This document shows positions 3,317-13,718 of a DNA stretch of 13,718 nucleotides, piece after piece. Below the pieces are notes generated by a model that made no database searches, had not been told where the DNA came from, and saw only the letters and a program-made list of their open reading frames with translations. The DNA lies in the NCBI GenBank assembly GCA_029856105.1, contig JAHQWH010000228.1:1-13718 (forward strand), written 5' to 3'. Position numbers and translations under genes: made by a program. The stretch's first letter is position 1. Each line of letters opens with the position of its first letter. The stretch is from Promethearchaeia archaeon (lineage in GTDB: Archaea > Asgardarchaeota > Lokiarchaeia > Sigyniarchaeales > SOKP01).

Positions 3317-4525
3317 TTATTTAGTTTTTCTTAACTGCGAGATTTCAAGCCGTTGTTCAATGTTTTGTTTGCTCAAATCGTCAACCAAACTTTCGAGCTC
3401 TTTAAACCTTAAATTAATACCTGGGTTTATTGTTTGTGTTGTATTTCCCTGAGTTTGAATCTGAATTCTTAAACTATCTAACTCTGTTTCTATTTTATTT
3501 AATTTTTGATCTTTTAGTTTGAGTTGGTTGTCTAAATCTTCGTATTTTCTTTTAATTCTTATAGCTTCGTTCTTAATCGTAGTAATTGCTTCTTCTTTCG
3601 TTTTTAACGCGTTTTTTGATTCAGCTAATTGTTTTTGCAAAAAGCTTGCCATTTCTCTTTGAATTTTCAATTTACCTTCAATTTCTCCTTGAGGGATGCT
3701 ATCAAGAGTATCTTCCTCATTTTGCCCTTCTTTAATTTGTCCTTGAAGATTTGCTATTTGTACTTTTGATTTACTTAATTCGCTTTGTAATTCTTCTACA
3801 ACTTCTTTTAAAGCAATTGGTTCTGGTTCTGCTTTACTTTTCTTGTCTTTTTCTTTTTTCTCGTGTTTAGTTATAACCTTTTTTAATTCTTCATTTTGTC
3901 TTTTTGCTTTATTAAGTTTTTTTTGCAGCTCTTGTAGTAGATTTTTCGTATTATTATTATCAACATGGTTAGTTCCTATTTGAGAAGAGCTATTCTCGAT
4001 CTTTTCCGTTAAATCCATAATTTTATCATTTAATAATTCAATTTTTTCGTCCTTTTCACTCATTTTTTCGTTATATTCGTCGCTTCCAAGATCTTTATTC
4101 TTCAACCGCCTAATTAAAGATTCTTGTTTATTTAATTTATCTTGTAATTCATGAAGCAAAATATTAAGTGGTGCTTTATCCTTTTCTCTTAGCTCTTCTA
4201 CGCTAATAACAGAAGAATCAGCTGTTCTCAAAAAGTTATCGTGCTTTTTTTGTAATTCCATTTTTTCTTTTCTTAAAAAACCCATTCGATTTTTTAGCTC
4301 TCGTACTTCTCTATCCTTAGCATCTAATTCAATATTTAATTTTTCTTCTTTCGCCTTTTTCATCTTTTTTTTCGGAGCCTTTTCATCGAACATTTCCTCG
4401 TATCTCATAACTTCTTCTTCAAAGCCATCAATTTTATCTAAGTAAAGACCAATTTCATTATCTTTTTTGTTCAATTCTAACTGTAACTCGTTAATTCTCT
4501 TGCGTAAGTTATCTTCTTCTGTCAT
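3317..4525 (-). CDS. Long coiled-coil protein of unknown function
   Basis: 402 aa, K/E/L/Q-rich heptad pattern throughout; no ATPase motif and no TM segment; AAGGTG upstream of the ATG. Confidence 0.8.
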   Translation of the reverse strand: MTEEDNLRKRINELQLELNKKDNEIGLYLDKIDGFEEEVMRYEEMFDEKAPKKKMKKAKEEKLNIELDAKDREVRELKNRMGFLRKEKMELQKKHDNFLRTADSSVISVEELREKDKAPLNILLHELQDKLNKQESLIRRLKNKDLGSDEYNEKMSEKDEKIELLNDKIMDLTEKIENSSSQIGTNHVDNNNTKNLLQELQKKLNKAKRQNEELKKVITKHEKKEKDKKSKAEPEPIALKEVVEELQSELSKSKVQIANLQGQIKEGQNEEDTLDSIPQGEIEGKLKIQREMASFLQKQLAESKNALKTKEEAITTIKNEAIRIKRKYEDLDNQLKLKDQKLNKIETELDSLRIQIQTQGNTTQTINPGINLRFKELESLVDDLSKQNIEQRLEISQLRKTK

Positions 4526-7754: not shown

Positions 7755-8390
7755 TTGGATTTTGAAAAATTAACAGAATTAATAATTGAGTTAGAAGTAG
7801 ACGATATTGAAGCTGCAGTGAAGGAAGCCCTAGAAGGGGATGGAAAGGACCCATTTGACATCTTAAGCGCTTTAACAAAAGGAATGGACGAAGTAGGAAA
7901 AAGATATGAAGAGAAGGAATATTATTTAACTGAGTTGGTATTAGCGGGGGAGACCATGAAAGAAGCGTTTAAAGTGCTCCAACCAGCCTTAGCAGCATCA
8001 GACAAGTCAGTAGATAAAACAAAAGTTATCATTTGTACAGTTAAGGGCGACAATCATGATATTGGTAAGAATATTTTAGGATCTCTGTTATTAAGCAGCG
8101 GTTTTGAACTGATCGACCTTGGCATGGATGTAGATGCAGATATAATTGTTAATAAAGTAAAGGAATCAGGAGCTACGGTAATTGCGTTAAGCTCGCTCTT
8201 AACAATGACTGTTGAGCAGATTAAAACCGTTCACGAAGCGTTAATCGCAGCGGGTCTTAGGGATAGTGTAAAATTAATCGTTGGTGGAGCTCCTTTGAAC
8301 ATGGAACTTGCTAAGCGGTTGGGTGCAGATGATTTCGCAGATGACGCTGTCGATGGAGTCAGGCATATAAAAAAGTTAGCAGGAAAATAA
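7755..8390 (+). CDS. Corrinoid (cobalamin-binding) protein of the methyltransferase-cognate MtaC/MtbC/MttC type
   Basis: N-terminal cap domain (LTKGMDEVGKRYE...YYLTELVLAGETM) and a B12-binding Rossmann domain with D-x-H-x-x-G (GDNHDIGKN), SSLLT and VGGA; TTG start after AAGGGG. Confidence 0.93.
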   Translation: MDFEKLTELIIELEVDDIEAAVKEALEGDGKDPFDILSALTKGMDEVGKRYEEKEYYLTELVLAGETMKEAFKVLQPALAASDKSVDKTKVIICTVKGDNHDIGKNILGSLLLSSGFELIDLGMDVDADIIVNKVKESGATVIALSSLLTMTVEQIKTVHEALIAAGLRDSVKLIVGGAPLNMELAKRLGADDFADDAVDGVRHIKKLAGK

Positions 8391-8648: not shown

Positions 8649-8903
8649 ATGACTGGTGGAAAAGACAAGGAAATAAAATACGATACGGAATTAGATACGA
8701 GGGGTTTATTTTGCCCAGAACCTCTTTTTGAATTAAGGACTTTTTCAGAATCATTAGATATTGGTCAATGTTTTAAAGTTTTAGCTGATGATCCGGCAGC
8801 AGAAGAAGATTTGACAAGGTGGGCAAAAAGAACTGGTACAGAGTTAGTTGAGTTTTTTAAAGATGGAGATGATCTAATATTTTACTTCAGAAAAAGGGAA
8901 TAA
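8649..8903 (+). CDS. tusA: TusA/SirA-family sulfur carrier protein
   Basis: 84 aa with LDTRGLFCPEP (CPxP) and VLADDPAAEEDL; AGGAGG ribosome-binding site. Confidence 0.92.
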   Translation: MTGGKDKEIKYDTELDTRGLFCPEPLFELRTFSESLDIGQCFKVLADDPAAEEDLTRWAKRTGTELVEFFKDGDDLIFYFRKRE

Positions 8904-8935
8904 TATTTAACATGGAATTAAGGAGGGATTAAGAT

Positions 8936-10126
8936 ATGAGTATATATCTAGACAATCAGGCTGCAAGACCCGTAGACACAAGAGTCGTGGATGAAATGCT
9001 CCTATACTTTAACGAAAAATTTGCAAATCCGGCTTCACTTCATTGCGATGGAGATATTGCTACAGATATTTTAGAGACATCACGAGAAAAAATTGCAAAG
9101 TTTGTGAATGCTCCTAATCCATCTGACATCTTATTTACTTCTGGCGCGACCGAGTCAAATAATTTAGCTTTAATTGGAGCTGCTATGAGACAGAAGAAAA
9201 AAGGGAACCACATAATTATTTCTGAAATCGAACATATATCTATCTTAAACCTTGGGAAATATTTAGAAAGACAGGGGTTTAGAGTAAGCAGAGTTTCTGT
9301 AGATCGGTTTGGTATCATTAAACTAGATAAGCTTGAGAAGCTAATAACAGATGAGACAATTTTAATCTCAATTTCAACGGCTAGTAACGAAGTTGGAAGT
9401 TTACAACCAACAGCTGAAATTAGTAGGATAGCGAGAGAAAAAGGAATATTATTTCATACTGACGCTGTTGCTAGTGAAAGCGTAGTTCCAATTGATGTTC
9501 AAAAAGTTCCGATAGATTTAATCACATTATCGTCGAACGATATTTACGGACCAAGAGGGGTTGGCGCATTATACTTAAAAAAAGGAGTACGAGTTAACCC
9601 TATAATAATTGGTGGCGGTCAAGAAAGAGGTATGAGGTCAGGTTCTGAAAATATAACTGGCATCGTTGGGTTTGCTAAAGCCGCAGAGATTATGAAGGAA
9701 GAAATGCCCAAAGAATCAGAAAATTTAAAAAAATTAAGAGATAAGTTGATTAAGAATATCTTGGAAACAATTCCTAAATCGTATTTAAACGGAGATCCCG
9801 TAAAAAGACTTCCTCACAACGCACATTTTCGGTTTGATTATATCGAAGGGGAATCGTTGATATTAACGCTGAAAGAACACAATATTGCTGCTGCTACGGG
9901 CTCAGCTTGTAGTTCAAAAACATTAGAGGCATCTCATACATTAATTGCAATGGGTCTTTTGCACGAAGAAGCACACGGTAGTCTACTGGTTTCTTTAGGT
10001 AGAACTACTCGCGAATCCGACATTGATAAGCTTATAGAAGTTTTACCAAACCAAGTAAAAAGGTTGAGAAAGTTATCTCCATTAACTCCTCCAGAATTAT
10101 TAAAAAAATATGATGAGGTAAAATAA
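8936..10126 (+). CDS. iscS: IscS/NifS-family (group I cysteine desulfurase-like) protein with the PLP lysine replaced by Asp
   Basis: YLDN, FTSGATESNN, EH, NEVG, FHTDA, GGGQERGMRSG and GSACSS (Cys325) are present; the canonical SxHK-x-YGP reads SSND-I-YGP. AGGAGG ribosome-binding site. Confidence 0.92.
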   Translation: MSIYLDNQAARPVDTRVVDEMLLYFNEKFANPASLHCDGDIATDILETSREKIAKFVNAPNPSDILFTSGATESNNLALIGAAMRQKKKGNHIIISEIEHISILNLGKYLERQGFRVSRVSVDRFGIIKLDKLEKLITDETILISISTASNEVGSLQPTAEISRIAREKGILFHTDAVASESVVPIDVQKVPIDLITLSSNDIYGPRGVGALYLKKGVRVNPIIIGGGQERGMRSGSENITGIVGFAKAAEIMKEEMPKESENLKKLRDKLIKNILETIPKSYLNGDPVKRLPHNAHFRFDYIEGESLILTLKEHNIAAATGSACSSKTLEASHTLIAMGLLHEEAHGSLLVSLGRTTRESDIDKLIEVLPNQVKRLRKLSPLTPPELLKKYDEVK

Positions 10127-10130
10127 TAAA

Positions 10131-10934
10131 ATGAAATCTACTACATATTCAGACAAGGTATTGGACCACTTCAAGAATCCTCGAAACGTTGGTGAAATTG
10201 AAAACGCAGATGGAGTTGGTCGAGTTGGAAACCCAGTTTGTGGAGATCTTATGTGGATCTACCTCAAGATTGCCAAAAATGAAAAGGGTGAAGAAGTAAT
10301 TGAGGATATTAAATTTAAAACGTTCGGCTGTGGTTCAGCTGTTTCTACATCATCAATGATTACTGAGATGGCAAAAGGTATGACACTTGATGAAGCGTAT
10401 AAAATCACGCGACAAAATGTTGCTAACGAATTAGATGGACTTCCTCCTATAAAAATGCATTGCTCTAATCTAGCTGCCGATGCTTTAAAAGCTGCTATCG
10501 ACAACTATCGTTTAGGTACAGAGCCAGAAATAGAGATCGTTACGTCTTGTCAATTAGATGTCAGGATAATCCTCGGAATCGATGACTTTCTTGGGAAAGG
10601 AGTTTATAAAGAAGTACCCGCGGATTTAGAAGAGTTTAGAGAAAAAAGAATTATTATAATCGACTCGGGAGACGAATCTTTAGAGCTCGCACTTAAACTA
10701 ACAGAATATACTGGAAGAGTAATTGTTGTAACTTCTGCAAAATCAGTTCCTGGCACTGTTGAATTGAGGAAAAAATTGAAGCATTCAGATGTAAAACTAT
10801 TACAAGAATCAGAATTGATTGAAATCAAAGGAGAGCTCGATGAAGTCGAAAAAATTGTTATACACGATTTCGATGAGGACGAGAATTACGAGCTATTCGT
10901 TGATGTAGTAATAGTTTTAGATTATCGCTTATAA
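10131..10934 (+). CDS. iscU: IscU/NifU-N Fe-S scaffold fused to a thioredoxin-reductase-like Rossmann domain
   Basis: YSDKVLDHFKNPRNVG, GNPVCGD (C37/D39), FGCGS (C67) and LPPIKMHC (H110/C111) occupy aa 1-128; a further ~140 aa resemble the TrxB NADPH domain. The gene starts 4 nt after the iscS stop. Confidence 0.92.
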   Translation: MKSTTYSDKVLDHFKNPRNVGEIENADGVGRVGNPVCGDLMWIYLKIAKNEKGEEVIEDIKFKTFGCGSAVSTSSMITEMAKGMTLDEAYKITRQNVANELDGLPPIKMHCSNLAADALKAAIDNYRLGTEPEIEIVTSCQLDVRIILGIDDFLGKGVYKEVPADLEEFREKRIIIIDSGDESLELALKLTEYTGRVIVVTSAKSVPGTVELRKKLKHSDVKLLQESELIEIKGELDEVEKIVIHDFDEDENYELFVDVVIVLDYRL

Positions 10935-10954
10935 AAAAAAAATTTATTCTAATA

Positions 10955-10991
10955 CTCTAATTTTTTCAATCTTTATTCTCTAATTTTTTCA
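10955..10991 (+). terminator. Tandem oligo-T terminator-like tracts within a 14-bp direct repeat
   Basis: CTCTAATTTTTTCA occurs at 10955-10968 and 10978-10991, just downstream of the iscU stop. Confidence 0.4.
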
Positions 10992-11098
10992 TAATTTATA
11001 ATAAAGAGGTTTAAAAAGCACAATTAATTCTATTTTTTTAAAGTAGTGATATAGTGCATCACGATCGCACAACTAAAAATAAATAAAAAAGTGATAAT

Positions 11099-13471
11099 AT
11101 GAAAAAAGTTATAATTGTAGGTGGAGTTGCTGGGGGCGCCTCGACGGCATCTCGACTTAGAAGGTTAATGGAAGATGTGGAGATTACAGTGCTTGAGAAG
11201 GGGGAGTATGTTTCATTTGCTAACTGTGGATTACCGTATTATATTGGTCACATCATAAAGGACCAAACTCAATTGGAACTAATGACGCCAGAAGAATTTT
11301 GGGATCGATTTAGGATTGACGTTAAAGTTAATCACGAAGCAATATCAATCAACAAGAAAAAGAAAACTGTTACGGTCAAAAACCTTGAAAATGATAAAGC
11401 TTTCGAATTGGACTATGATTACTTAGTACTTTCTCCTGGAGCTACCCCAATTGTACCTCCATTTGAGGGGATCGGTGATGTTCCCGTATTTACTCTGAGA
11501 ACAATTCCAGATTCCGTTAAGATCAAACAATTTGTCGAAAAGAATGATGTTAAACACGCAACCATCATCGGGGGCGGTTTTATCGGTTTAGAAATGGCTG
11601 AAAATTTGAAACACAGAGGTGCTAAGGTAAAAATCGTGGAAATGCTTGACCAAGTTATGGCGCCTATAGATAAGGAAATAGCACAATTTGTTCACCAAGA
11701 ATTACTACTAAATGGTGTGTGTTTACAATTAGAAGACCCTGTTGATTCTTTCAAATGTGATAGTGACAATTGTTTTTATGTTATTCCTAAAAGTGGGAAA
11801 AATATTAAGACTGACATGATAATTTTAGCAATTGGGGTCAAACCAGAAAACAAATTAGCTAAGGAATCTGATTTAGAAATTGGTCCGCGAGGTCATATTA
11901 TTGTAGACGAACAAATGAAAACCTCAGATCCTTCAATATTTGCTGTAGGTGACGTAGTCCAAGTAAAAAATTTTATAACCCAAGAACCCACTGGAATACC
12001 TTTAGCGGGTCCGGCAAATAAACAAGGGAGAATAGTTGCTGATGTCATTGCTGGCCGTGATACGAAGTATCAAGGAATTTTGGGAGCCTCCGTCGTAAAA
12101 GTGTTTGATTTAACTGTTTCAACAGTAGGCTTAACTGAAAAGCAATTAAAAAAAACCGATATTAAGTACGAAAAGATTTACATACACCCTAATAACCACG
12201 CAGGTTATTACCCTGGAGCTGTGCCAATAACTCTTAAATTGTTATTTGAAATTCCAAGTGGAAAAATACTCGGAGTTCAAGCAGCTGGAGGTCCAGGAAC
12301 AGAAAAAAGGATTGATGTAATTGCTACTGTAATTAAATTCAAAGGAACGGTGTTTGACTTAGAAGAGTTGGAACTTACTTACGCACCGCCTTTTGGTTCT
12401 GCTAAAGATCCTGTAAATATGGCGGGATTTGTTGCGGCTAACGTAATTAAAGGTGATATGCCAATTTGGCATTGGCACGACATTGAAAAAATAAAAAATA
12501 ATAATAGTTTTATACTTGATGTGAGAACACCCGAAGAATATCAAATCGGAACTATTGAAGGAGCTGTGAACATAAGCGACTTAGAATTAAGAAGTAGGCT
12601 GGATGAAGTTCCTAAAGATAAAAACATTTACATTCTCTGCGAAGTGGGGTTTAGAGGCTACCTTTCAACAAGATTATTAATTCAAAAAGGATATCACGTT
12701 AAGAATTTATCAGGTGGATACAAATTATTTAAAACAGCAGCAGCAACAACCGAAGAAATAGCCGCTGAGTGTGGAGCATCAGAAGAAATTATGGAAGAAC
12801 TAGTTGAAAGAAAAACTACAATTACGGAAGATTATATAGAAGTAGATGCGTGCGGTTTATCCTGTCCAGGGCCTTTAACTGCGCTCATTAAATCTCTTGA
12901 AGCACTACCGGAAAACAAAAAATTAAAAATTTATGCTACCGATCCAGGGTTTAAAGCGAGTGTAGAAGCTTACGCAAAATTGAATGATGCCGTTACTTTG
13001 TTATATTTAGGTAAAGAAGAAGGAAAATTGGTTGCGATGTTAGAAAAGGGACCTATAACCATCGAAGATGTTTCAGCACCGGTAAAAATTGCGAAGAAAA
13101 CGAGGAAACAATTGAGAAGTCCAGATGCACCTGCTCTATCTGAGATGAGGGCAGACGAGTTATTCGAAGCACTTGATACAGATGAATCGCCAGCACTAAT
13201 GATTGACGTTCGGACACCTCATGAATATCATAGTGGACATATTAAAGACACTAAATTAATGCCGTTAGGGGAATTGATGCATAATATTGATGCTTTAAAC
13301 AAATATAAGGATGAGGAAATTGTTGTAGTTTGCCATAGTGGGGCACGCTCGATGATGGCAGCCCAATTAATGGTCAGAGAGGGATTTAAAGATGTTAGAA
13401 ACTTAACAGGTGGCATGATTATATGGTACCGGAATGGTTACCCTGTGTTGCCACCTAAAAAAGAATATTAG
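11099..13471 (+). CDS. CoA-disulfide/persulfide reductase (CoADR/Npsr-like) fused to rhodanese, TusA and a second rhodanese domain
   Basis: FAD motif IVGGVAGG, SFANCGLPYY (C43), NAD(H) motif IGGGFIGLE...VE, IFAVGD, YYPGA and YAPPF; then DVRTPEEY...LCEVGFRG (C514), VDACGLSCPGP (C585/C589) and DVRTPHEY...VCHSGARS (C745). Confidence 0.93.
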   Translation: MKKVIIVGGVAGGASTASRLRRLMEDVEITVLEKGEYVSFANCGLPYYIGHIIKDQTQLELMTPEEFWDRFRIDVKVNHEAISINKKKKTVTVKNLENDKAFELDYDYLVLSPGATPIVPPFEGIGDVPVFTLRTIPDSVKIKQFVEKNDVKHATIIGGGFIGLEMAENLKHRGAKVKIVEMLDQVMAPIDKEIAQFVHQELLLNGVCLQLEDPVDSFKCDSDNCFYVIPKSGKNIKTDMIILAIGVKPENKLAKESDLEIGPRGHIIVDEQMKTSDPSIFAVGDVVQVKNFITQEPTGIPLAGPANKQGRIVADVIAGRDTKYQGILGASVVKVFDLTVSTVGLTEKQLKKTDIKYEKIYIHPNNHAGYYPGAVPITLKLLFEIPSGKILGVQAAGGPGTEKRIDVIATVIKFKGTVFDLEELELTYAPPFGSAKDPVNMAGFVAANVIKGDMPIWHWHDIEKIKNNNSFILDVRTPEEYQIGTIEGAVNISDLELRSRLDEVPKDKNIYILCEVGFRGYLSTRLLIQKGYHVKNLSGGYKLFKTAAATTEEIAAECGASEEIMEELVERKTTITEDYIEVDACGLSCPGPLTALIKSLEALPENKKLKIYATDPGFKASVEAYAKLNDAVTLLYLGKEEGKLVAMLEKGPITIEDVSAPVKIAKKTRKQLRSPDAPALSEMRADELFEALDTDESPALMIDVRTPHEYHSGHIKDTKLMPLGELMHNIDALNKYKDEEIVVVCHSGARSMMAAQLMVREGFKDVRNLTGGMIIWYRNGYPVLPPKKEY

Positions 13472-13593
13472 AATTTACAAATTTTCTTTAAATTATAAGT
13501 ATAAAATATAAAATTAGGGTACTAAATATATATTCAAATAAACATTCAATTTACAAGAAATTTCCAATAAATATATGAAAAAAAGGTGAGAAA

Positions 13594-13718
13594 ATGAAAA
13601 AAACAGTTAAAAACTTATTCGCCGCATTCTTGGGAGAATCTCAAGCGCGAAATCGATATACTTTGTTTTCAAAAATTGCTAAAAAAGAAGGTTATGTTCT
13701 AATTTCAAAGATTTTTGA
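13594..13718 (+). CDS. rbr: Rubrerythrin, 5' partial (runs off the window)
   Basis: Not in the ORF track. Manual translation gives MKKTVKNLFAAFLGESQARNRYTLFSKIAKKEGYVLISKIF, matching the rubrerythrin N-terminus NL-x-x-AF-x-GES-x-A-x-x-RY...A-x-x-EG; AGGTGAG upstream. Confidence 0.88.
   Translation, partial: MKKTVKNLFAAFLGESQARNRYTLFSKIAKKEGYVLISKIF

Follow-up and report, generated by a model that had tools for sequence, protein, structure and literature searches.

The closest described counterpart of the system considered here is the IscS–IscU pair of Archaeoglobus fulgidus (4EB5, 4EB7 and 4HVK; D199K variant, 4R5F), whose IscS has an SSND motif with aspartate at the PLP-lysine position, retains a loop cysteine and is encoded beside iscU. 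In PMC8918507 this IscS is reported to lack desulfurase activity and to bind PMP, its cysteine ligates the cluster on IscU, and the sulfur source is stated to be open, with free sulfide as the hypothesis; TusA or DsrE partners go unmentioned in this literature as relayed by a review and a citing paper. MIS systems (MisS/MisU), for example IscSU of Methanosarcina acetivorans (PMC7585200, PMC13066941), are also two-component pairs of an IscS-like and an IscU-like protein, with no chaperone, carrier or ferredoxin genes adjoining, and M. acetivorans IscS1 likewise lacks the lysine. MIS is defined by an active cysteine desulfurase without extras, whereas our IscS has lost that signature and the pair comes with sulfur carriers. 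In the E. coli IscS–TusA(–TusBCD) relay (3LVJ; PMC2854127), TusA takes sulfur from an active IscS and is displaced by IscU. That relay shares with ours a CPEP-type TusA with equivalents of R27, D45 and D51, an IscS and a DsrE/TusD-family gene, but here there is a single DsrE and no TusE or MnmA neighbour was recognised. The E. coli tusA and tusBCD genes are not known to be clustered with iscS.

DsrE–TusA cascades of sulfur oxidisers (Metallosphaera cuprina and sHdr systems) pair a single-cysteine DsrE with TusA, taking up polysulfide or thiosulfonate sulfur and then transferring it (PMC11094781); the sink there is the sHdr complex, whereas the genes linked here are lysine-less iscS and iscU, and the TusA has Glu rather than Leu/Ile in CPxP. 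For the large flavoprotein of the locus, B. anthracis CoADR-RHD (3ICR), Shewanella Npsr (3NTA), E. faecalis CoAPR (8A56) and B. fragilis BF638R_0572 (CoADR-Rhd-TusA-DsrE; PMC6158253) share Cys43 in SFANC, the first rhodanese cysteine and a stress-type context; the B. fragilis architecture also shares the internal TusA but has DsrE2 as its fourth domain, where ours is a second rhodanese. No link of CoADR–rhodanese reductases to Fe–S assembly is reported in the literature found.

The window (the whole 13,718-nucleotide stretch analysed, from a Promethearchaeia archaeon) ends in five genes that an earlier note had read as one sulfur relay. All five are co-oriented open reading frames on the + strand, as that note had them:

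8649..8903, + strand: tusA, 84 aa, PF01206 (E 1e-18), Cys22 in CPEP; core module
8936..10126, + strand: iscS, SSND, Asp202 at the PLP-lysine position, loop Cys325; core module
10131..10934, + strand: iscU with tail, NifU_N at aa 5-127, Pyr_redox-like tail at aa ~149-261; core module
10935..10995, + strand: T-rich tract 3' of iscU, a possible archaeal terminator judging by its letters
11042..11062, no strand: palindrome, candidate operator 5' of the reductase gene
11099..13471, + strand: CoADR–rhodanese–TusA–rhodanese fusion, 790 aa, domains from Pfam; lineage-specific neighbour
13594..13718, + strand: rubrerythrin, first 41 codons, PF02915, truncated by the contig end

These genes form two modules, not a single pathway: tusA–iscS(K→D)–iscU, and the CoADR–Rhd–TusA–Rhd fusion with rubrerythrin. 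The gap between iscU and the reductase gene is 164 bp and holds T-tracts and the palindrome.

IscS matches 4eb5 best, both by sequence (E 2e-129) and by fold (TM 0.92). The claimed loss of the PLP lysine is borne out: the Schiff-base SxHK motif reads SSND, placing Asp202 at a position that is Lys in 37/37 controls. This loss is not a sequencing error, because the motif recurs in orthologues from the relatives examined and all 93 sequences picked by it form one clade (SH-aLRT 100 in a quick tree search). Archaeoglobi IscS falls inside the clade, and the Archaeoglobus locus (L133/L280) also has tusA upstream; the lysine-less IscS is the already known A. fulgidus type, a precedent that the earlier note did not cite for this finding. 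Four positions are lost clade-wide, K202, H201, Q179 and R351, the last three being Asn, Ala and Leu in our protein. We take these to be, beside the lysine itself, the His preceding it, the DxxQ Gln and the Arg that binds the substrate carboxylate in active desulfurases. Among the signature features of active type I enzymes (IscS/NifS/MisS) that were compared, only the GSAC loop cysteine is retained (Cys325; 92/92 across the clade). The ring- and phosphate-binding residues H100, D176, T72 and S199 are invariant, and S102, R299, T329 and R85 are clade-typical and strongly conserved. From these residues, the lysine-less IscS of this genome would be catalytically inactive as a cysteine desulfurase and, other cysteine-binding residues being lost too, an outside sulfur donor can reasonably be proposed.

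IscU has its scaffold residues (Cys37, Asp39, Cys67, His110 and Cys111, plus LPPIK at the LPPxK motif) and matches TIGR03419 above the cut-off, as expected of an IscU/MisU scaffold. The TrxB-like fusion described earlier is real as a tail, which comprises no more than the NAD(P)H-binding domain of a TrxB/FNR-like flavoprotein of the kind lacking CxxC: the FAD domain is absent, the glycine loop is degraded to DSGDES and the score lies far under the TIGR01292 cut-off, so that the FAD domain, CxxC and glycine-rich NADPH loop of thioredoxin reductase are all missing. The tail aligns with the middle domain of full-length IscU–flavoprotein fusions at three other loci (L088, L126 and L169). Both this remnant and a lysine-bearing IscS elsewhere in the genome set the locus apart from that of A. 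fulgidus.

Operon TusA carries the sulfur-carrier residues C22, D48 and D54 and keeps the equivalents of E. coli TusA R27, D45 and D51 (in 93-100% of homologues), with a score that falls short of the NCBIfam equivalog cut-off for E. coli TusA. Cys22 is invariant (83/83 homologues), and CPEP is found in 65/84; the remaining TusAs of the genome are CPLP, CPIP and CPGP. A census spanning Bathyarchaeia, Hadarchaeota, Thermoplasmatota, Archaeoglobi, Methanosarcinales, Asgards and several bacterial phyla placed co-oriented tusA directly upstream of lysine-less iscS at 71/85 loci and dsrE, whose cysteine is likewise invariant (51/51), at 43/85. Either or both are present at 74/85 loci, an adjacent carrier being absent at the other 11, compared with 0/43 for lysine-bearing type I IscS controls from the same genomes; iscU follows lysine-less iscS in 86/95 loci. 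Since the sampled lysine-less IscS are monophyletic, this linkage stands for a single ancient event that has been kept and not for a series of independent events. A distant family of lysine-bearing desulfurases (L248, L267 and L271) has TusA-like genes beside it as well. The present locus has no dsrE; an operon-type dsrE lies in trans on another contig, C1 (80% identity), and is kept in trans in 4/5 congeners tested. Replacement of dsrE by the second rhodanese of the fusion was considered and ruled out by this orthologue and by the many congeners that have both. An apparent DsrE–IscS fusion at one locus (L073) was discarded, as the stretch overruns the locus in GC-rich DNA and is possibly read-through.

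Lysine-less IscS shows no clade-specific conservation at the acidic helix positions that IscS contributes to the E. coli TusA interface, and a predicted complex between dimeric IscS and two TusA molecules (score 0.05, mark 0.32) was counted neither way. Among RNA-derived contigs from mixed samples, pieces span tusA–iscS and iscS–iscU, and none of those listed spans iscU–reductase, although such contigs cannot show transcripts. No publication was found on the cassette, or linking TusA or DsrE to lysine-less IscS, in a search that covered mainly openly available papers.

The reductase fusion has the hallmarks of CoADR–rhodanese (Npsr/CoAPR) enzymes, namely SFANC with Cys43, GGGFIG with Glu181 and rhodanese Cys514, together with TusA Cys589 and a second rhodanese Cys745. 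The first, second and third of these cysteines are present in 21/21 aligned relatives and Cys745 in 20/21; the five persulfide sites proposed across the locus (two TusA, two rhodanese and the IscS loop cysteine) are all present, and conserved in relatives. With best PDB matches to 3icr, 3nta and 8a56, and 530.7 bits against TIGR03385 (below the 578.8 cut-off), it is probably an NADH-dependent CoA-persulfide/polysulfide reductase. Rubrerythrin begins an rbr–dfx–(fprA) oxidative-stress block in congeners. The palindrome occurs twice in the genome (reversed control, 0), its second copy preceding a thioredoxin and TrmB-family regulator operon, and is found in 11/25 genus genomes at the reductase or thioredoxin locus (for the latter, three sites were inspected). 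It is a candidate operator, suggesting that the reductase is regulated apart from the iscU operon. Matches to a conserved TATA element 5' of the reductase were patchy in two loose-pattern searches, and only the palindrome was retained; a sigma-70 promoter/terminator scan was set aside as the wrong promoter type for an archaeon. Opposite-strand genes lie between iscU and the reductase gene in seven loci.

We lean, with modest confidence, towards module 1 as an Archaeoglobus-type Fe–S assembly unit fed by DsrE/TusA persulfide and module 2 as a separate persulfide reductase. The tusA–iscS–iscU set would be a minimal unit in which IscS, unable to draw sulfur from cysteine, acts as a docking platform, its Cys325 shuttling sulfur and ligating the cluster temporarily. 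DsrE and TusA, co-inherited with it, would bring ready-made persulfide sulfur, most likely in the order DsrE, TusA, IscS (Cys325), IscU; the sulfur might come from inorganic polysulfide or thiosulfate, or from an ordinary IscS encoded elsewhere. The linkage is consistent with such a hand-over, and an IscU persulfide is able to support cluster assembly (PMC9769115), but carrier binding, transfer direction, sulfur source and regulation are all put forward from sequence. Module 2 would lie outside the relay: its reductase resembles a stress gene under regulation of its own, belonging with rubrerythrin to a thiol/oxidative-stress block, and it could contribute sulfide or reductant in this lineage but would not be required. 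A bolder version, in which inorganic sulfane sulfur, entering for example via the YeeE/YeeD importer encoded in the genome, runs backwards through the dead desulfurase into IscU as an old route, widespread among anaerobic archaea and some bacteria and needing no cysteine, with the fusion perhaps adding sulfide or electrons in this lineage, we regard as tentative and on balance doubtful.

How far the fusion belongs to the relay separates these readings from the proposal of the earlier note, a single five-gene, cysteine-free system in which the fusion takes up sulfane sulfur from the environment, or reduces it, and passes it through TusA and IscS Cys325 to IscU. Within the genus, a Lokiarchaeia lineage, the fusion does adjoin the cassette in 25/28 informative genomes and its four catalytic cysteines are conserved; electrons are required for persulfide assembly, and the flavin domain is gone from the IscU tail; SufB was not found in the 92%-complete genome; and in two deltaproteobacteria (L100 and L189) the gene immediately upstream of the cassette is CoADR-like and has no rhodanese. 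Yet corrinoid protein, ABC transporter and RNase Z genes are about equally syntenic in the genus, the fusion is absent beside all 16/16 loci outside it, and all eight linked loci of the pattern scan sit within a single 22-row subclade. The refutation test that the earlier note had set, conserved gene linkage, thus goes against the fusion beyond one lineage. Three congeners have the operon without an adjacent fusion (lost or moved), three genomes carry the fusion distant from iscS, only 5/50 more distant genomes have a CoADR–rhodanese match, none beside the cassette, and the cassette is present in one single-contig genome that gave zero rhodanese matches. Characterised homologues, moreover, reduce persulfide to H2S and thus consume it (PMC7969121, PMC9405070), and a normal IscS is encoded in the genome. 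We therefore drop the fusion as feeder and consider the five-gene system highly improbable; the part of the relay that stands is the link of tusA to lysine-less iscS, conserved across phyla, to which DsrE must be added as a second conserved carrier that had been missed.

The same carrier genes also fit outward flow, because E. coli TusA is an acceptor from IscS, and operon TusA is of its CPEP type. IscS would then be a ligand donor only on a sulfide-fed scaffold, in line with the free-sulfide hypothesis published for A. fulgidus (PMC8918507), while TusA and DsrE take sulfur from it, or buffer reactive sulfur, to serve tRNA thiolation, cofactor needs or detoxification, on the pattern of E. coli IscS–TusA–TusD. 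Against this, a dead desulfurase has no obvious means of making persulfide for export, and none of the recurring cassette neighbours was recognised as a gene for tRNA thiolation or molybdopterin; a flavodiiron protein (16 loci) and a ferredoxin (7 loci), assigned by sequence likeness, recur instead. DsrE is a TusD homologue, which we count for outward flow. In M. cuprina, transfer goes from DsrE to TusA only (PMC11094781), and overall we judge this explanation unlikely. Very unlikely, and speculative, is a lysine-free chemistry in which PMP-loaded IscS reacts with a keto acid that carries sulfur, 3-mercaptopyruvate for example, to give a ketimine, makes the Cys325 persulfide and, in the usual direction, supplies IscU and TusA/DsrE. 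PMP binding reported for the A. fulgidus protein (PMC8918507) and the conserved pocket described above would suit it, but the clade has lost the R351 arginine, the invariance of N201/D202 is partly imposed by the search pattern used to collect the sequences, and no publication reporting such activity was found.

Cysteine independence of the IscS–IscU pair is unproven, because this genome encodes, at other places, an IscS that has the lysine and a second IscU. Lysine-bearing desulfurases also occur in at least 36/50 other genomes with lysine-less IscS. Two genomes (G081 and G068) once thought to have the lysine-less enzyme alone proved in a family search to hold further desulfurase-like genes, including a SufS motif in G068; two incomplete Archaeoglobi bins are the sole cases in which none was found.

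The conserved link gives lysine-less IscS–IscU two candidate sulfur donors, TusA and DsrE, for a question described as open since the A. fulgidus structures (PMC8918507). Genes annotated 'cysteine desulfurase' in such genomes need checking for the lysine. Inward transfer, if true, would be a third mode of feeding Fe–S assembly, besides cysteine desulfurases and free sulfide, at work in abundant anaerobes such as Asgard archaea and Bathyarchaeia.

The five genes that the earlier note had joined into a single cysteine-independent, persulfide-fed Fe–S system are all present in the window:

8649–8903, co-oriented with the other four: tusA
8936–10126, co-oriented: iscS lacking the PLP lysine (IscS*)
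10131–10934, co-oriented: iscU with a C-terminal extension
11099–13471, co-oriented: CoADR–rhodanese–TusA–rhodanese fusion, 790 aa (the reductase fusion)
13594 to contig end, co-oriented: rubrerythrin, 5' part

A corrinoid (MtbC-like) protein gene upstream of tusA (7755–8390) is syntenic within the genus and not beyond it; 6 kb upstream lies a ThiS/SAMP-like ubiquitin-fold sulfur carrier with a GGK terminus (2071–2280). A SNAP/TPR-repeat protein (132–1727) and a long coiled-coil protein (3317–4525) have no clear family.

The loss of the PLP lysine is confirmed: the motif reads SSND, with Asp202 at the desulfurase lysine position, and Cys325 is kept. A. fulgidus IscS is both the top sequence match among solved structures (E 2e-129) and the best match to the predicted fold (TM 0.92); judged by both, lysine-less IscS is an already known type (Archaeoglobus). 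The A. fulgidus protein carries Asp199, binds PMP and lacks desulfurase activity; it may donate one cysteine to the cluster, its sulfur source being posed as an open question (review, PMC8918507). M. acetivorans IscS1 likewise lacks the lysine (PMC7585200). Between 92 lysine-less and 37 lysine-bearing sequences, K202, H201, Q179, the N-terminal Thr pair and R351 are lost together, while Cys325, H100 and D176 are retained. We take R351 to be the residue binding substrate carboxylate in desulfurases; with it gone, the cysteine site of IscS* appears dismantled as a whole. All 93 lysine-less tree sequences form a single clade (SH-aLRT 100, quick tree search), with Promethearchaeota (Lokiarchaeia) sequences nearest to the window IscS, which points to an Asgard archaeon as the most probable source. 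Two other IscS variants without the lysine keep the loop cysteine (locus L257, 1529–2842, AHHIHGP; L196, 3441–4604, APTFYGP), possibly through independent losses, and Bathyarchaeia loci L260–L262 and L264 hold in one row an SSYK variant, iscU and a SufS-type desulfurase.

A pattern scan of species-representative genomes found at least 120 lysine-less iscS loci. Among the loci listed, 85 have at least 900 bp upstream, and co-oriented tusA precedes iscS* in 71 of these, dsrE in 43 and either in 74, counts from a kin-rich sample that are not a statistical test; iscU follows directly in 86/95. These loci span Bathyarchaeia, Hadarchaeota, Thermoplasmatota, Archaeoglobi, Methanosarcinales and several Asgard groups, as well as Actinomycetota, Bacillota and deltaproteobacteria. 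Lysine-bearing type I iscS of the same genomes served as the control and has a tusA/dsrE neighbour in 0/43 cases. Given such kinship and the clade's single origin, this is one linkage long retained. Both carriers keep their cysteine without exception (TusA 83/83, DsrE 51/51). Operon TusA, mainly of CPEP type (65/84), keeps equivalents of E. coli TusA R27, D45 and D51, R27 being the central salt bridge to IscS (PMC2854127). Missing from the window, dsrE has an orthologue (80% identity) on contig C1 of the same genome and lies elsewhere in four of five congeners without operon dsrE; the conserved unit is thus tusA–dsrE–iscS*–iscU. Every single component is already known, and a literature search of limited coverage found no paper describing a TusA/DsrE link to lysine-less IscS.

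The tusA link proposed earlier therefore stands across these loci; that to the reductase fusion does not, being restricted to one subclade. The fusion is a separate module, adjoining the cassette in 25 of 28 informative genus genomes and lying nearby in 0/16 loci outside the genus (a few of which stop close to iscU). All eight fusion-linked cases among the listed loci of the wider scan fall in one 22-row Promethearchaeota subclade. Outside the genus, three genomes carry the same fusion distant from iscS*, and just 5 of 50 more distant genomes have a CoADR–rhodanese match, none adjacent to the cassette. Within the genus, unrelated genes such as that for the corrinoid protein are roughly as syntenic. 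Seven loci have opposite-strand genes between iscU and the reductase. One congener (G016) carries the fusion elsewhere, together with rubrerythrin; two others (G020 and G028, 91–92% complete) keep the locus intact except for the fusion, to which nothing in either genome matches. Structurally the fusion is closest to B. anthracis CoADR-RHD, Shewanella Npsr and E. faecalis CoAPR, enzymes with a link to detoxification that turn persulfides into H2S by reduction (PMC7969121, PMC9405070); a B. fragilis version, CoADR-Rhd-TusA-DsrE, serves thiol balance (PMC6158253).

The genome has exactly two copies of a 21-bp palindrome, one at 11042–11062 and the other 5' of thioredoxin and TrmB-family regulator genes. 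It is present in 11/25 congeners, with zero control hits, and none was found before tusA. In Haloferax, OxsR, also of the TrmB family, binds 5' of the genes for a CoADR homologue and for thioredoxins (PMC9426492), a parallel in function with a different motif. At the thioredoxin locus (L301, contig C158, 7768–8742), a candidate OxsR-like regulon, the regulator is a single-domain protein in which a cysteine precedes the helix-turn-helix.

The system need not be independent of cysteine. The genome also encodes a lysine-bearing IscS (contig C159) and a stand-alone IscU (C3), and of 50 further genomes that carry the lysine-less gene, at least 36 have a lysine-bearing IscS or SufS as well; only in two Archaeoglobi bins, both incomplete, was no lysine-bearing desulfurase found. 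Cysteine could thus serve to charge TusA in trans. An inorganic source is likewise at hand, since the genome has a YeeE-type importer together with TusA and DsrE genes; importers of this type bring in thiosulfate and break it down (PMC11073785). The importer's operon (L304, C19, 27606–29949) reads tusA-yeeE (Sulf_transp)-dsrE-dsrE-dsrH-like, a candidate thiosulfate import/relay unit; a second sulfur-relay locus, linked to heterodisulfide reductase, reads tusA (CPLP)-dsrE-dsrE-dsrH-like-dsrE2-hdrC-hdrB-hdrA-like (L303, C224, 8486–13980). No SufB was found in the window's genome (92% complete). Genus SufB matches are weak (E about 1e-15, frames ~328 aa, versus 1e-45 to 1e-50 in other families; for example, G029:C96:146752–147411 and G018:C7:25876–26535), several lying ~4 kb from lysine-bearing iscS, and are possibly a degenerate SMS scaffold.

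The TrxB-like tail of IscU aligns to the NAD(P)H-binding domain that lies in the middle of complete IscU–flavoprotein fusions (L088, L126, L169). The flavoprotein parts of these fusions lack CxxC and resemble TrxB-fold ferredoxin-NADP reductases; in the window's tail the FAD domain is absent and the glycine loop degraded, so that it cannot function as TrxB. Such complete fusions suggest an ancestral system with an electron supply of its own, which would fit sulfane-sulfur reduction on IscU. A similar fusion occurs in L247, a related free flavoprotein gene lies 3' of iscU in L152, and the window's genome has a third, divergent IscU-like protein (C94, 11106–11552).

We lean towards DsrE and TusA feeding IscS*/IscU with persulfide, while the reductase is part of a stress block. 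The two carriers would hand persulfide to IscS* Cys325, which would pass it to IscU and may also help to hold the nascent cluster; the reductase fusion would belong to the stress block. TusA and DsrE proteins take up polysulfide sulfur, with transfer from DsrE to TusA (PMC11094781), and persulfide-IscU with iron and reductant gives clusters (PMC9769115). Counting against inward transfer, E. coli TusA is an acceptor displaced by IscU (PMC2854127), and the IscS side of its interface lacks clade-specific conservation. A sulfide-fed scaffold, with carriers working outward or as a buffer, seems rather unlikely, and altered PMP chemistry of IscS* very doubtful. The five-gene system is equally improbable: in its favour, two deltaproteobacteria have a CoADR-like gene, without rhodanese, immediately 5' of the cassette; against it stands the fusion's absence nearby outside the genus.

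Beside a flavodiiron gene in congeners stands an acyl-CoA dehydrogenase–rubredoxin fusion (L052, 14327–15730). In other lineages the cassette repeatedly has flavodiiron and rubrerythrin genes nearby, neighbours that hint at its use under oxidative stress.
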